DNA from: Candidatus Altimarinota bacterium
GTDB lineage: Bacteria; Patescibacteriota; Gracilibacteria; BD1-5; UBA2023
Length of the DNA: 64,000 nt
Assembly: GCA_043769645.1 (NCBI GenBank)
Contig: JAYVJC010000042.1
Coordinates: 990-64,989, forward strand
Direction: 5' to 3'
In this document: piece after piece, positions 11,881 to 63,228 of the stretch
Layout: every line of letters starts with the position of its first letter
How positions within the stretch are numbered: position 1 is the first letter of the stretch
Program-made: the position numbers and the translations under genes
Notes under the pieces: generated by a model
What the model was told of the DNA's origin: nothing
Seen by the model: only the letters and a program-made list of their open reading frames with translations
Database searches by the model: none

Positions 11881-11960
11881 AAAGAAAGTATCAAGTTTTC
11901 AAGTAAAAAGTCTTCAAGTAAAAACTTGAGAACTTTATCACCTTCTACTTGATAACTCTA

Positions 11961-15385: not shown

Positions 15386-16450
15386 TTATAAAACTCTTAC
15401 CGTGATTATATGTTTATTTTTTGAAAGGTGAAGTTTTGCTATAGTTTTTGTCGTCCCTCCATGTGCTGTCAAGATAAATTTGAGCATCTCTTCTATGTTT
15501 CATTCCGAAAGTCCGATAGTCCCAAGATTTGCCACTTCATAGCAGTAGCGGATGATTTCTTTCTGAAAAAATGGAGATTTTTTCTCGAAATCCTCGACTC
15601 AGAAGCTGGTTTTCCCCGCAAGAAATATCCGTATTTCGTCATCAATCCAGTACTTGGTCTCTTCAGTATATTCGATAAAGTTTCCGAGCGCCTGTCTATA
15701 CACAGGATTAATGGTTTCGAATTTCGGGAGGACTTCGTGGCGGAGATAGTTTCTCTGATAGTCAAGACTGATGTTGGTCGAATCCTCTCGGTAGGAGATA
15801 CTATTTTCTGTTGCGTAGATGAGTAATTCTGATTTCGAGATGTGGAGAAGGGGGCGAAGGAGAAGTGATGAGGATGGTAGATGGTGGATGGTGCGTGAAT
15901 TTTCAACAAGAGGGTCAATTGCATATTGAGTCGTCATTCCTACATCGTTAGTATGCTTAACTATTCGCTCTGCATCCTGTAACATTCAACTTGTAACTTG
16001 TAACTGACTCAAAGCATGAATCCCTCCGAGTTTCGATCACCTGATGAGATTGAACACCGCCGTCTCGATACGATCATCGAGATGGTGTGCGGTCAATATA
16101 TATTTTGCTCGATACTTCCGAGCCATGCGAAATAAGAATTCGTATCGGTACTTCCGTGCAGTCGCCTCCACACTCATTTTCTCATCCTGGGCAAGGGCTC
16201 CAATATCGATTTTCTCGACTTCACTCCTCACTCATTTCTCACGACAATACTCGGCTACAAAGTCTCGATCTCCATCACTCTCAGCCCCCCGAAGTGAGTG
16301 ATCAAAATGGGCGACGATAATATTTTGCTTCTGATGATGTCTCAGCAAGAGATCAAGGAGTACCATACTATCGACTCCCCCACTCACCCCGAGGATAAGG
16401 ATATCTTCTCTTTCTATATATCGGTGGTATGTTTCGAGGAATTGCTGCAT
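15386..16450 (-). CDS. tilS: tRNA(Ile)-lysidine synthase
   Basis: Track ORFs 16232..16570, 16037..16231 and 15599..15985 share one frame and are separated only by TGA. PP-loop ILGVSGGVDS lies 20 aa after the internal Met chosen as start (16450). Stop is TAA 15386-15388. Confidence 0.85.
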
Positions 16451-18042: not shown

Positions 18043-18133
18043 GATAAATCACATAGGTTGAAAGTTGAAAGTTGAAGAATACTAAGAAAGTATAAAACGA
18101 TAGCAAGTTATTTTTTGACGAAATTGAATAGTT

Positions 18134-40495: not shown

Positions 40496-40784
40496 ATTAT
40501 AAAATATTTCACTATACTGCATATCTCTGAGTTATCAAGCTGGAGAAAAAGTTCTCAAGTAGAAAGTTTTAAATTGATTAAATAGAAAGTATAGGGTTTT
40601 ATAGTAAAAAACTTTCAATTCGAACTCTTCACAAAAACCATAATTATTCTCCTCACTCCTAGCTCGTTAAACTATACCCTGAAACTCTAAATTTTATACT
40701 TGAGAACCTGAAAACTTGAGAACTTTCTTCCTGTAACTTGTAACCTGTAACTCTTCCCTTTTATTTCTTATCTTTTCACTTCCT

Positions 40785-41153
40785 ATGGATTCTCGTATCA
40801 CGATGCACCGCCGACGATTTGCTGAAGTCGTCAGTCAGAAACCTCACATCACATTCACCGAACTCAAGAAGCTCTTCGTCACCAAAAAAGAAGGGATGAA
40901 CCTCGCAACCCTCTATCGTATCATCGATGCTTTCAAACTCCAAGGACTCATCCATGAGATCGAACTCGGTGGTGAGCGCGTCATATTTCTCTGCCACTGT
41001 ATGGATCGAGCCGAGACGGAGAAAGGTATCATCATCACCGCTTGTACGAACTGTCTCTCGATCGTCGATAATCACTTCGCCCTCGAAGCTCCCGTCACCG
41101 ATAGTACGACCATCCAGTACGTCCGATCATGTGGGAACTGTGTACTTCGATAG
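40785..41153 (+). CDS. Fur-family metalloregulator (Fur/Zur/PerR-like)
   Basis: Track ORF of 122 aa. Winged-helix part ..ATLYRIIDAFKLQGLIHEIE.. and C-terminal Cys pairs (CHC..CTNC, CGNC) are present. Confidence 0.8.
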   Translation: MDSRITMHRRRFAEVVSQKPHITFTELKKLFVTKKEGMNLATLYRIIDAFKLQGLIHEIELGGERVIFLCHCMDRAETEKGIIITACTNCLSIVDNHFALEAPVTDSTTIQYVRSCGNCVLR

Positions 41154-42478: not shown

Positions 42479-42596
42479 CAGCCCACCTTCTTTCTATCGT
42501 CTCTACCGTTCCATCACTTCTACCGTCCCAACCTTATCAGCCCACCTTCTTTCTATCGTCTCTACCGTTCCATCACTTCTACCGTCCCAACCTTCC
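42479..42596. repeat. Tandem duplication, 2 x 59 nt (CAGCCCACCTTCTTTCTATCGTCTCTACCGTTCCATCACTTCTACCGTCCCAACCTT..)
   Basis: The two adjacent units differ only in their last 2 nt. The array is pyrimidine-rich and lies immediately upstream of the ZIP transporter gene. Confidence 0.9.
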
Positions 42597-50784: not shown

Positions 50785-50900
50785 AAGGGTGAGGGTTACA
50801 AGTTATAAAGTTTTAAAGTTGGGATCGGATTTCCCCCTTGATAAAGGGGGGTAAGGGGGATTTGGATTTTGTCATTCTGAAGTTGTTTCTGGATCTTCGA

Positions 50901-51842: not shown

Positions 51843-52220
51843 ATGCCAGAAAAATCTAAAGAAATACCCTACATTACACGAGATGTCCCAGAAGAACCTT
51901 ACGAGGTTTTTAAAGATCCGAAAATTATTCAGCATATTCACGCTAGTATGATTCAGGCAGGTATTCCTAAAGAACAAGTATTTGTTGCAAGTTATAGATC
52001 AGGAACTATATCGATATCTTTAAAGGGGCTTGGGCAGATAAGTTTTGATCTCAACACCCACTATATAAAATCAGGTTGATGAATACAATTCACACCTGTC
52101 TGAATTGAAAGAATAAAATTAGAGTATAAAAAAAATAAACTAATATCAGATAGCTTACCTCGAAAAACGGCTCAGCTTGAACTCGATAAGCTATCTCAAG
52201 AAATTCTCACTACCGCCTAA
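51843..52220 (+). CDS. Hypothetical protein (125 aa after recoding)
   Basis: Track ORF 51834..52079 with ATG at 51843, continued through 3 TGA to TAA 52218-52220. The stop overlaps a terminator hairpin. Confidence 0.4.
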
Positions 52221-52236
52221 CTGGCGGTTTTATTTT
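52212..52236 (+). terminator. Intrinsic terminator
   Basis: ACCGCC-TAACT-GGCGGT stem followed by TTTTATTTT. Confidence 0.65.
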
Positions 52237-52273
52237 GCATTTTGAATTTTTCATTTTGCATTATAATACACGT

Positions 52274-54589
52274 ATGCAAATCACCAAGTCCCTCCTCCAT
52301 ACGACCGATGCGTACATCAAGAAGCTTCGCGAAGCCGGTATAGAAAGCGTGACTGACTTTCTCTCCCTCTTTCCTCGAGGGTACGAGGACAAGAGCGAAG
52401 TTATCGAGCAGTTCTCACTCCTGAATGTTCAAGAAAAGCAGGTCGTGAAGTGCAAGATCGAGCTCCTCACCGAAGAGCAGACTCGCAACAAGAAGCTGCT
52501 GATTAAGGCAGTTCTCACGGATCGGGATGGAATACACGCCGAAGCTGTGTGGTGGAATCGTCGTATGCTCCTGACACAATACTCTCAGTGAGATATCGTC
52601 CTCATCTACGGGCAGCCGAAATACGACTATGGGAGGCTTTCATTCAACTCGTCAGATATCGAACACTATCGAGAAAAGCGTCGAGAAATCGTCCCGATCT
52701 ACAGTGATGTGAACTATATACCGGGGACTTGGATTCGAGAAAAAATGCTTTTTCTCAAGAATTTTATCGAAGAAATCCCTGATACCATCCCTCGAGAAAT
52801 ACGCTTGAAGAAGTGACTTTCACCACGTACGACGAATATTCGCAATATTCATTTCCCACAGAGTATCGAAGATTTTGACCGAGCAAGAACCGAGCTCGGA
52901 TATGAGGAACTCTTTCACTTCCAGATGGTCGGTGTGGAAAAGAAGTATTCGATGATGGCGAATTCGGAGTGACTGGCACCAGCCACCCCACTCGATACGG
53001 ACCTCATCAAATCTCTCATTGCGGATCTCCCCTTTCCCCTTACGAATAAGCAGAAAATCGTCCTCTTCCAAATCCTCAAGGATATGGAAAAGCCGCACGC
53101 GATGGCCCGCCTCCTTCAAGGAGATGTCGGAACGGGGAAAACGGTGGTCGCCATGATCGCCGCGATACATATTATCAAGAGTCAAAACCTCATCCCTCAT
53201 CTTTGAGAACCAGGTTCATACGATTTGAAATCTGAATTCTCCCCCTTGATAAACGGTACTGAGAGTGAGGTACAAGTCGCCATCATGGCTCCGACGGAAA
53301 TCCTCGCCCGACAGCACTTCGCTGGGAATGAGGCGTGGCTGATGAAGTGGTGAATCCGATCAGATCTCCTCGTCGGCTCTCTCACTCCTCGGATGAAAGA
53401 GGACGCACGAGAACGACTGAGAAGTGGACAGACCGATATCGTCTTCGGAACCCATGCCCTCATCCAGGACTCAGTCCAATTCGCTCGTCTCGGCTTCGTC
53501 GTGGTCGATGAACAGCACCGATTCGGCGTCGAACAGCGAAAGGCACTCGAAGAGTATTGTAGTTCTCAAGTAATCAAGTTATCAAGTAATCAAGAATGAG
53601 AATGAGCTAATAAAGAACTTGAAAACTTGAAAACTTGAAAACTTTCTCAAAAATCGATCCTCCCCCACCGTCTCAATATGTCCGCAACACCTATTCCTCG
53701 GACCCTGGCTCTGACAATCTACGGTGACCAGGATGTCTCGGTTCTCGATGAGTACCCGGTCGGTCGCAAGCCGATCCATACTCGAGTCGTTCGAGAAGAT
53801 CAGCGAATCGAGATGTATCGGTTCATCGAAGAACAAGTCAGAGAAGGAAGACAAGTATACTGGATTTCTCCATTGGTAGATGGTTTAAAAAAGCAAAATA
53901 TAGCACCTGATGAAGGAAAGAAAAATAGGGGTTCGGGGATGAAAACTGTCTGAGAACGAAAAGAGAATGATATCTGATGAGCGGAGCGAACGAGTTTTTT
54001 CACCCCCGAGACTTTTGATACTTTTGGTCTCAAAAGTATATCAAATAGCTGATGAAATGAATCTAAAGAAGATATCGCCTCTGCCGTCGAAATGCAGATT
54101 ACACTTTCTGCTATCTTTCCGAAGCTCACCATCGGACTCATCCATGGGAAAATGAGTGGGAAAGAGAAAGATCGGGTGATGCAAGAGTTCTATGAAAATA
54201 AGATCCATATCCTCTCCTCAACCTCGGTCGTCGAAGTCGGAGTAAATAATCCCAATGCGACGGTCATGTGTATCGAAGCAGCTGAAAGGTTTGGCCTCTC
54301 ACAACTCCATCAGTTCCGAGGCCGAGTCGGTCGTGGAGAACACCAGTCCTACTGCTACCTCTTCACGACGAAAGAATACAAAACTGACCGACTTCGAGCG
54401 ATGGAGCAAACCAACGACGGCTTCGAGCTCGCTGAGATTGACCTCGAACTTCGCGGTCCGGGTGAGGTATATGGAGTCCGCCAGTCAGGAGTTCCAGACT
54501 TCCACTTCGCCGATCTTCGAGATGTCAATCTTATCTCAGAAATACAAGAAGATATAGAAGAGTGGATGAAATGAAAAAAGAATTTGTAA
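52274..54589 (+). CDS. recG: ATP-dependent DNA helicase RecG carrying three in-frame repeat insertions
   Basis: Track ORFs 52235.., 53393.., 53678.. and 54092.. share one frame. Motif I QGDVGTGKTVVA, MAPTEILARQH, DEQHRFG, MSATPIPRTLA, and GRVGRGEHQSYC are present. The terminal TGA 54572 is followed by 4 codons to TAA 54587-54589. Confidence 0.9.
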
Positions 54590-57350: not shown

Positions 57351-57986
57351 ATGTCGCCCTCCATTACCACCTACATAAAAAATCTCAAAGCTTTCGGACT
57401 TGCCAGAAAGATCCCCAATATTTCTGAAGAAAATGCGGAGTTTATCAAAAATCTGATTCGTGAGCAAAAACCTCACCATATCCTCGAGATCGGCACGGCG
57501 AATGGATATTCTACGCTCTGCTTCGCACAAGCTGTAATGAGTGATGAGGCATGAGTTATGAGTTCGGTCGAACTACAACTGAAAACTCTAAACTCTCAAC
57601 TCACAACTGACATCACCACCATCGAATCTGCCTGGAACGCTCATATAGAAGCCGTAGAGCACTTCAAGAACTGTAAAATCAAACATATCCATGCCATCTT
57701 GGGGGATGCAAAGGCCGTCATACCGAGCCTTCAGGATGATTATTTTGACTTCGTATATATCGATGCGATGAAGCGTGAGTATCTTGACTATCTGGTCCTC
57801 GCGCTCCCGAAAATGACACAGAATGCTCTCATAGTAATCGATGATGTAGAGAAATTTCGCGATAAGATGGAAAATCTCTTTACATGGCTTGACTCCCGAG
57901 GCATAACCTATAGAATAGAAAAAACAGATATCGATGATAGTATTATGATCCTCTATCGTCGAGATATCGGCATCAAGAGAATATAA
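57351..57986 (+). CDS. Class I SAM-dependent O-methyltransferase (family 3, YrrM/COMT-like) with an in-frame low-complexity insertion
   Basis: Track ORFs 57351..57554 and 57558..57986 are in one frame, joined by a TGA. Motifs: ILEIGTANGYSTL and FDFVYIDAMKREYLDY. Confidence 0.8.
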
Positions 57987-62906: not shown

Positions 62907-63228
62907 ATTAGGCTCTTGAACTCCTTTCTGCTGTTCAACACTTTTTTACCTTTACATCCTTTTCTTTTTCTATTGTTCCATCATTTCTACCCTTCTCCCA
63001 TCTCTACTGTCGTTCGTGTTAAACGAAGATACCTAAGAGTTTCCTCCTAAGTTCTACCTTTCCCTACCCCCCTTGTTCCCCTCGAAAGGGGGATCCAAAA
63101 TCTTCTTACTTGCTAATTGCTCATCTTTAGTTACCTAGGACTGTTTGTTAACTTAGCTTTTCTCTCACGTCTCTACCTTTCTACCGTTTCAATCGTTTCT
63201 CCCCTTCTATCGTTTCTCCCCTCCTCTT

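Follow-up and report, generated by a model that had tools for sequence, protein, structure and literature searches.

The stretch of DNA analysed here, called the window throughout, is 64,000 nucleotides (nt) of contig JAYVJC010000042.1 from a Candidatus Altimarinota bacterium (GenBank assembly GCA_043769645.1, positions 990 to 64,989). Our subject is the recG gene in this window, which carries three inserted segments labelled A, B and C. The genome, labelled G000, is a 1.2-Mb draft in 56 contigs and is 92.6 per cent complete. Open reading frames (ORFs) in the window are protein-coding only if TGA is read as a sense codon (genetic code 25, TGA = Gly). The features of the locus are as follows:

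52274–54589, + strand: recG coding sequence, 771 amino acids (aa) in code 25, with 14 in-frame TGA = Gly codons
53183–53269, + strand: insertion A, ~27–29 aa (residues ~303–331), between Walker A (GTGKT) and motif Ia (MAPTEIL)
53558–53656, + strand: insertion B, ~31 aa, between motif II (DEQH..RFG) and motif III (SATPIP), made of two inverted tandem 8-mer arrays
53561–53587, + strand: left arm of B, a TCAAGTAA / TCAAGTTA array (inverted repeat, 27 nt, 85 per cent complementary)
53617–53643, + strand: right arm of B, (AACTTGAA)x3.6, read as ELENLKTGKL (inverted repeat, 27 nt, 85 per cent complementary)
53879–54061, + strand: insertion C, ~59 aa, in the loop between the helicase lobes (after PLV.. 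and before ..DIASAVEM)
53917–54049, + strand: core of C, a copy of a 133-nt two-hairpin repeat (subtype I, GGGGTTCGGGG; nhmmer E = 2.8e-34; 129 bits with covariance model R1)
53928–54012, + strand: long stem of C (~53928–53950 with ~53992–54012) around a variable ~40-nt loop (RNAalifold on six copies, with compensatory changes, and single-copy fold)
54011–54037, + strand: 3' hairpin of C (ACTTTTGATAC ... GTCTCAAAAGT), arms 54011–54021 / 54027–54037 (inverted repeat search and RNAalifold)

Every helicase motif is intact despite the insertions. The protein has the Pfam domains RecG_wedge, DEAD, Helicase_C and RecG_dom3_C, and its database relatives are labelled Candidatus Gracilibacteria / Altimarinota. 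Between G000 and its congener G001, the recG core shows a synonymous divergence (dS) of 0.88 and a nonsynonymous divergence (dN) of 0.022 (dN/dS = 0.025), and is a gene under strong purifying selection. Antisense to recG there is also an open frame of 450 aa (window 52217–53569, minus strand), one example of the long spurious ORFs that occur because this code has only two stop codons.

Three insertions in RecG

A phmmer alignment of the predicted RecG to the T. maritima RecG structure (PDB 1GM5) consists of four aligned blocks separated by three gaps, which are A, B and C. The blocks break at query residues 298/326, 426/463 and 543/598, leaving query-only stretches at 299–325, 427–462 and 544–597, and comparison with empty-site orthologues puts the boundaries at residues ~303–331 (A), ~431–461 (B) and ~537–595 (C). 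An earlier note on this DNA, made from the sequence alone, had placed three insertions in recG and stated that all of them keep the reading frame when TGA is counted as Gly. Its positions match ours within a few bases, and the frame is kept as it said. Peptides at the junctions in the predicted protein include EEYCSSQVIK, ELENLKTGK and TSFFTPETFDTFGLK.

The insertions hold nine of the fourteen TGA codons of the gene (odds ratio 10, p = 5e-5), and their G+C content is 28–43 per cent, compared with 49.5 per cent in the rest of recG. Being G+C-poor and TGA-rich, they therefore have a composition like that of non-coding DNA. We also examined an AlphaFold2 model of RecG (25 sequences), which was mediocre (mean predicted local distance difference test score [pLDDT] 64, predicted template modelling score 0.45). 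Residues 306–330, 429–465 and 535–597 are among the stretches of this poor model with pLDDT <50 and are mostly coil, and all three insertion sites fall between aligned 1GM5 blocks. The idea that the segments are tolerated as surface loops, also raised in the earlier note, is only weakly supported, as the segments are simply the lowest-confidence stretches of a model whose mean pLDDT is 64.

We found recG in all 31 related genomes searched and aligned the proteins. In this comparison, which the earlier note had called for, A, B and C occur together only in G000, G001 (RecG 88 per cent identical) and G014 (73 per cent). The 27 other genomes of the order have short canonical RecG loops, except for independent insertions at site A or B in G002, G019, G020 and G026. 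In a wider database set, the closest RecGs (at least 69 per cent identity) are all occupied at site C, by differing types, and more distant RecGs are empty there. Confined to the nearest RecGs, the insertions are therefore derived and clade-specific. The comparison also bears on mis-assembly or chimeric joins as the source of the insertions, since G000 is a metagenome-assembled draft of 56 contigs and repeats are prone to mis-assembly. We give this virtually no credence: the same three sites are occupied in independent assemblies and database proteins (G001, G014, P0003, P0005, P0007 and P0010), and the reading frames are preserved.

We consider it likely that recG is functional and that repeat DNA of two kinds, both native to the lineage and both translated, has colonised three permissive loops of its product. 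The segments consist of repeat DNA common to the rest of the genome and are not lineage-specific protein domains, which the earlier note had given as the opposing outcome. Insertion C belongs to one kind of repeat, and A and B to the other.

The two-hairpin element of insertion C

The palindrome that the earlier note had pointed out in C is real and forms the 3' hairpin within a larger repeat. BLAST and nhmmer identified six full copies of this repeat element in G000, including the one in recG, plus partial ones. The model has 133 positions, and the copies measure 131–145 nt. Their six-copy consensus is a long stem with a variable loop, then a short 3' hairpin, and eight of its 27 pairs are backed by compensatory double changes (RNAalifold). 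Folded as a single copy, C gives z-scores of -3.8 (antisense) and -1.8 (sense). A search of Rfam at E ≤1 returned no family match to B or C, only sub-threshold miRNA/snoRNA noise.

Five of the six full copies lie in genes, namely recG, cysS, ksgA, recJ and a radical-SAM (HemN-like) gene; the last four hosts were named by reading their sequences. All five are on the sense strand, in frame and stop-free, and none is without an in-frame TGA. Relatives contain about 12 more copies of the family inside genes. Across 28 sampled loci, the family copies in long ORFs are all sense and are read in two phases, giving two types of peptide (GGSG..TVGER...F.TFG.KS and NGESEG..LSE....EF..PSG.FGTFQSGKV). We rejected stop codons as the cause of the sense-only pattern, as the antisense frames are mostly open too.

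Covariance model R1, which was built on the six copies, has nine hits in G000 and detects the family in thirteen of the 31 related genomes, from three families of the order; across the 31 the copy number ranges from 0 to 47. Orthologous sites carry different versions of it. Site C of recG holds subtype I (GGGGTTCGGGG) in G000 and G001, and subtype II (GGGGAGTCCGAGGGG), in the other phase, in G014. The cysS element is missing from 17 of 18 relatives; at the same cysS site G000 has subtype II and G001 has subtype I, and the element of G003 sits at a different site in cysS. Two database RecGs carry the hairpin family at site A. Subtype swaps at the same site and the range of 0–47 copies per genome show turnover at the scale of genera. 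The earlier note had gone further and proposed an active or recently active system, which was not borne out, as G000 shows no sign of recent bursts.

The C core (44 codons) evolves unlike its host. Between G000 and G001 its dS is 0.096 and its dN is 0.131 (dN/dS = 1.36), and with dS at 0.88 in the rest of the gene, C is therefore about nine times more conserved than the neutral sites of its host, and synonymous changes are not favoured in it. These values suggest that constraint, or homogenisation by conversion, acts on C at the level of nucleotides or structure and not on the peptide.

The same values count against an adaptive origin, in which the insertions would be lineage-specific loops that give RecG and the other hosts a new function, such as an interaction surface. 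Such a role would fit the retention of the insertions in three genomes spanning 73–88 per cent RecG identity, and also the sense orientation and open frame that are always found. It seems very unlikely to us when the ninefold reduction of dS in C goes together with a dN/dS of ~1.4, when two different reading frames are used for the element at a single recG site, and when the same peptides (ELENLKTGKLEN and NGESEG..FGTFQSGKV) turn up in unrelated enzymes. The non-coding composition of the insertions speaks against it too, as does the fact that the peptides of A and B, in which substitutions are saturated, cannot be aligned between the congeners G000 and G001.

Tandem-word modules of insertions A and B

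Insertions A and B belong to a second kind of repeat, made of short words in tandem. Tandem Repeats Finder (TRF) reports two such words in B, (TCAAGTAA)x3.6 and (AACTTGAA)x3.6, in keeping with what the earlier note had read there. The two arrays are inverted, and B folds better than expected (z = -3.8 sense and -4.95 antisense, with 0/200 shuffles folding as well). The loop between the arms is 29 nt and contains no ORF. Arrays of (AACTTGAA)n recur at ~20 other loci. In A, G000 retains a degenerate word module (GATTTGAAATCTGAATTCT), a trace of an array that is clean, with 7-mer words, at the same site in G001 and in G014. We found no significant fold for A (z = -0.34).

Across G000, TRF at a score of at least 40 finds 81 arrays of period 7 and 34 of period 8, versus 0 and 1 in a Markov-3 simulation (115 vs ~1 overall). 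Median array length is 30–33 nt whatever the period. The distinct canonical words number 85, with AATAATG, AAAAGTT, AACTTGT and AAAACTTG the most frequent. By rough gene calls, 76 arrays lie at least 150 nt inside 49 genes, and the hosts include ArgS, LeuS, MnmA, Mfd, MutY and two glycosyltransferases, as identified by sequence reading. Recurrent peptides of in-gene arrays are ELENLKTGKLEN, VESGKLKVES and VTSYKLQVTS, and 34 of the 76 arrays contain an in-frame TGA. Of the 36 words found in genes, fourteen also turn up in intergenic arrays, and these fourteen account for 34 of the 57 in-gene arrays. This sharing of repeat words upholds the link in vocabulary between insertions and spacers that the earlier note had drawn. 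The spacers it listed for the words of B fared less evenly: related arrays are present at 11893–11924, 18057–18076 and 40700–40752, and the one at 15988–16005 falls inside an ORF according to the rough gene calls. Arrays elsewhere in the window include the following:

52232–52262, + strand: (ATTTTGC)x4.4 directly 5' of recG (TRF and sequence)
57537–57612, + strand: (ATGAGTT)x4 and (AACTCAC)x6 in the ORF at 57351–57986, a second in-gene example (TRF)
40700–40752, + strand: intergenic ACTTGAGAACCTGAAAACTTGAGAACTT plus (TGTAACT)x3, 5' of a start codon
11893–11924, + strand: intergenic AAGTYTTCAAGTAAA array beside an inverted ACTTGAGAACTT / ACTTGATAACT array

The resemblance of A to two particular elements of the window, also claimed in the earlier note, did not hold up. 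To 50821–50870 there is a single exact match of 14 nt (E = 0.28; 16/17 nt by eye), which is not significant, and the motif C4+TTGATAA is present four times in the genome. The element at 63061–63100 is unrelated, the two having no more than a C-rich hairpin in common. Separately, 50821–50870 and G000:C19:1330–1375 are two copies of a small, terminator-like hairpin, TTCCCCCTTGATAAAGGGGG(G/T)TA(A/G)GGGGGATTT, that lies 3' of genes; insertion A shares 14–16 nt with it.

Many intergenic arrays are promoter-proximal. The G-poor strand is directed at a gene start in 68 of 98, and in 38 the array stops 0–22 nt short of the start codon. The array upstream of recG is followed by TATAAT at 52262–52267, ending 6 nt 5' of the ATG, an arrangement typical of the leaders of this genome, which are promoter-proximal and lack a Shine–Dalgarno (SD) motif. 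An SD-like motif was found in 25 of 971 genes, G makes up 8 per cent of positions -20 to -1 of starts, and TATAAT is enriched from -35 to -11. Together, the scarcity of SD motifs, the low G and the position of TATAAT near starts suggest very short leaders or leaderless mRNAs. SD-less starts can be seen in the window at 52262–52276, 40752–40790 and 64330–64340.

We asked whether the arrays form hairpins as a rule and rejected the idea. With strict criteria, reverse-complement partner arrays within 700 nt were found for 9 of 153 arrays, versus 3 for shuffled words, and local alignment of array reverse complements to 120-nt flanks was no better than a complement-only control. Since the arrays mostly have no inverted partner, the hairpin of B is an exception.

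The modules at the recG sites differ greatly between relatives. At site B, where G000 has its two 8-mer arrays, G001 has (AAGTTAC)x4.4 and (CCTGCAA)x4.1, G014 has (AAAATTC)x4.7, and G020 and G026, which are from another family, have heptamer arrays of their own. A serious, if doubtful, alternative to colonisation is that replication slippage at short repeats, a microsatellite-like expansion, creates and reshapes the word modules of A, B and the in-gene arrays generally where they stand, the shared words reflecting mutational or selective bias and not copying. It would account for the complete difference in word at the same recG sites (8-mers in G000, 7-mers in G001 and G014) and for the saturation of A and B in a gene with a dN of 0.022. 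It would also fit the lack of flanking similarity between loci with the same array, the lack of any transposase among the four families searched and the lack of a regular inverted partner. It does not predict that identical arrays of 28–29 nt occur at six or more unrelated loci, or that fourteen words are common to both compartments, where chance expects <1. In G014, moreover, a near-identical 30-nt module occupies both site A and site B of recG. Modules cluster near 30 nt for any period, contrary to open-ended slippage, and within genes periods 7–8 outnumber periods 3, 6 and 9.

Arrays of the same kind also bracket genes of the PF05635 family (23S rRNA intervening sequence protein, a four-helix bundle). 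There are six such genes in G000 (C17:3493–3807, C47:14923–15237, C9:3006–3320, C9:23947–24252, C14:35762–36073 and C35:5344–5655). Inverted arrays drawn from the shared word vocabulary stand on both sides of each, and the downstream array abuts the start of the next gene. Five of the six flank pairs exceed shuffles (z = 3.4–10.5) and one is weak, though in some cases the complement-only control scores high as well. None of the PF05635 cassettes of G000 was found to share the arms of insertion B. PF05635 is present in 13 of the 31 genomes. All seven genomes with sampled 7/8-mer arrays are among these thirteen, in a sample that is small and biased, and PF05635 also occurs in ten of the thirteen genomes that carry the hairpin element. 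This co-occurrence of PF05635 and repeats is suggestive; it is correlative, and the genomes are mutually related.

The significant hairpins of B and C, whose stems resemble RNase III-processed intervening-sequence stems, and the bracketing of PF05635 cassettes by the same word arrays would fit intervening sequences that never reach the protein, being either cut out of the mRNA or skipped by ribosomes. We judge this highly improbable. Each genic copy examined is in frame without TAA or TAG (5/5 copies of C and 76 arrays), which neither removal nor bypass would call for; mRNAs of essential genes would be lost if they were cut and not rejoined; and A has no structure.

Origin of the insertions and relation to known systems

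Under the reading that RecG loops were colonised by repeat DNA, C would be a non-autonomous, dispersed element of 133 nt that spreads or is exchanged between sites. It would survive in genes when it lands in sense orientation with an open frame, and would be kept at the level of nucleotides or structure rather than peptide. Insertions A and B would be ~30-nt modules of 7–8-nt words, of the sort that also form G-poor, SD-less leaders and the inverted ends of PF05635 cassettes, and these modules would turn over very fast, with different words at the same site in sister genomes. Reading TGA as Gly leaves two stop codons, and sequences that would otherwise close every frame could become readable.

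Several points weigh against this interpretation. The six copies of the hairpin element in G000 share only 52–85 per cent identity, meaning that they are old, and recent conversion, not structural constraint, could lie behind the low dS of C. Part of the pattern could be due to gene conversion among copies or to slippage in situ. When filled recG sites were compared with empty ones, no unambiguous target-site duplication emerged. The transposase families PF01797 (Y1_Tnp/RAYT), PF07282 (TnpB), PF01609 (DDE_Tnp_1) and PF00665 (rve) were not found in the 92.6 per cent of the genome estimated to be present, and other families were not searched. The genome-wide gene counts depend on rough gene calls from codon usage. 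We infer from the sequence both that A, B and C are translated and that their peptides are neutral. Finally, the low-confidence structural model is compatible with A, B and C as floppy loops and is no proof of surface exposure.

The earlier note had likened the insertions to Rickettsia palindromic elements (RPEs), as a single system. A review of MITEs, the miniature inverted-repeat transposable elements, summarises RPEs as dispersed, non-autonomous, hairpin-forming sequences of 100–150 bp that are often in frame in housekeeping genes and are also intergenic (Ogata et al. 2000, via PMC10969869). The comparison holds for C, which behaves as an RPE (~133 nt, two hairpins, dispersed, in frame in five genes), and fails for A and B, which are a separate tandem-word kind. 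As far as that summary describes RPEs, C resembles them in size, palindrome and multiple copies, in having no known transposase, in adding a conserved peptide to unrelated housekeeping genes and in a copy number that varies between related genomes. Measured against the same summary, it differs in its two reading phases, in the need of every genic copy for TGA = Gly, in the differing subtypes at orthologous sites and in being conserved as nucleotides with a dN/dS of ~1; the likeness is one of behaviour, and in a different phylum no relationship of sequence would be expected. C is also like MITEs and like repetitive extragenic palindromic (REP) sequences and bacterial interspersed mosaic elements (BIMEs) in being short, structured, non-coding and dispersed. 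It differs from MITEs and REP sequences in that neither RAYT (PF01797) nor TnpB, DDE_Tnp_1 or rve, the transposase families searched, was found in G000; filled and empty sites yielded no terminal inverted repeat with an unambiguous target-site duplication.

For the tandem words, the closest parallels are short direct repeats of other phyla. Cyanobacterial heptanucleotide tandem arrays, the STRR sequences, were reportedly described by Mazel et al. in 1990. Direct repeats of the unit TAACTGA, known from Beggiatoaceae, Cyanobacteria and Bacteroidetes, lie just 5' of SD-less start codons, and in Beggiatoaceae the forward repeats stop all frames, so that they are confined to the ends of ORFs (PMC4679880). 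Like these, A, B and the intergenic arrays have two to six copies of a 7-nt unit, mostly 5' of SD-less starts and occasionally in ORFs, with a patchy distribution. They are unlike them in using dozens of 7- and 8-nt words and not one, and the TAACTGA unit is not among the words listed for G000. In contrast to Beggiatoaceae, about half of the arrays are inside genes, including the cores of essential enzymes; the barrier that keeps TAACTGA-type repeats out of coding sequence is largely gone here because TGA is Gly. Insertion B, in turn, is like the end of a PF05635 cassette (85 per cent complementary arms, same vocabulary) minus the gene, and is unlike the 23S rRNA intervening sequence cassettes in lying in a protein-coding gene, not rRNA, and in having no ORF.

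A more speculative proposal, which we think unlikely as it stands, is that the ~30-nt word modules, and perhaps the two-hairpin element too, are products or non-autonomous relatives of PF05635 (Avd-like) cassettes. A cassette-linked mechanism would write the modules on one strand, and the recoding of TGA to Gly would have opened coding sequence, including the cores of essential enzymes, to DNA that elsewhere is limited to leaders and spacers.

We found no description of such elements in the literature on Gracilibacteria / Absconditabacteria. Colonisation of RecG by repeats would extend the Rickettsia paradigm of in-frame selfish DNA in essential genes to Patescibacteria / Gracilibacteria, whose small genomes are thought to be streamlined, and would tie such DNA to heptamer-repeat leaders and PF05635 cassettes. 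It would also illustrate a consequence of stop-codon reassignment, in that all five hairpin copies within genes, and 34 of the 76 in-gene arrays, are readable here and would terminate translation in the standard code. In practice, the insertions inflate and distort alignments of marker proteins (RecG, CysS, ArgS, LeuS and KsgA) used for phylogeny and completeness estimates, and as fast-evolving markers they could serve to type strains.

RecG itself appears to be a recurrent landing site, with word modules, the hairpin element, DUF559 and GNAT domains in the same loops, and these sites map permissive positions of a superfamily 2 (SF2) helicase. Site A in G019 (G019:C1:117000–121500) contains a DUF559-like endonuclease domain of ~230 aa, and site B in G002 (G002:C3:62000–66000) a DUF559-like domain of ~190 aa; both are flanked by repeat peptides of the GEGSRTFS / GEGLGVRA type. 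Among database RecGs, PF04480 is present in about ten and GNAT domains in two. Another repeat type, a C-rich/G-rich palindrome with peptides like SPQPSPKGEGV / PSPVGEGV, occurs in a glycosyltransferase of G000 (C16:670–1923) and at site C of the database RecG P0007.

Two further observations concern other parts of the genome. A LeuS-like ORF (G000:C47:7356–10886, 1177 aa) appears, by eye, to have an internal segment resembling an alpha/beta-hydrolase (..ALILHGWEGKAESNWF..GHSLGG..), plus two word arrays near its C-terminus. Last, the window has a perfect tandem duplication at 42479–42594 (59-nt unit, 2.0 copies, 100 per cent identity) that is rich in CTACC / CCATC words.

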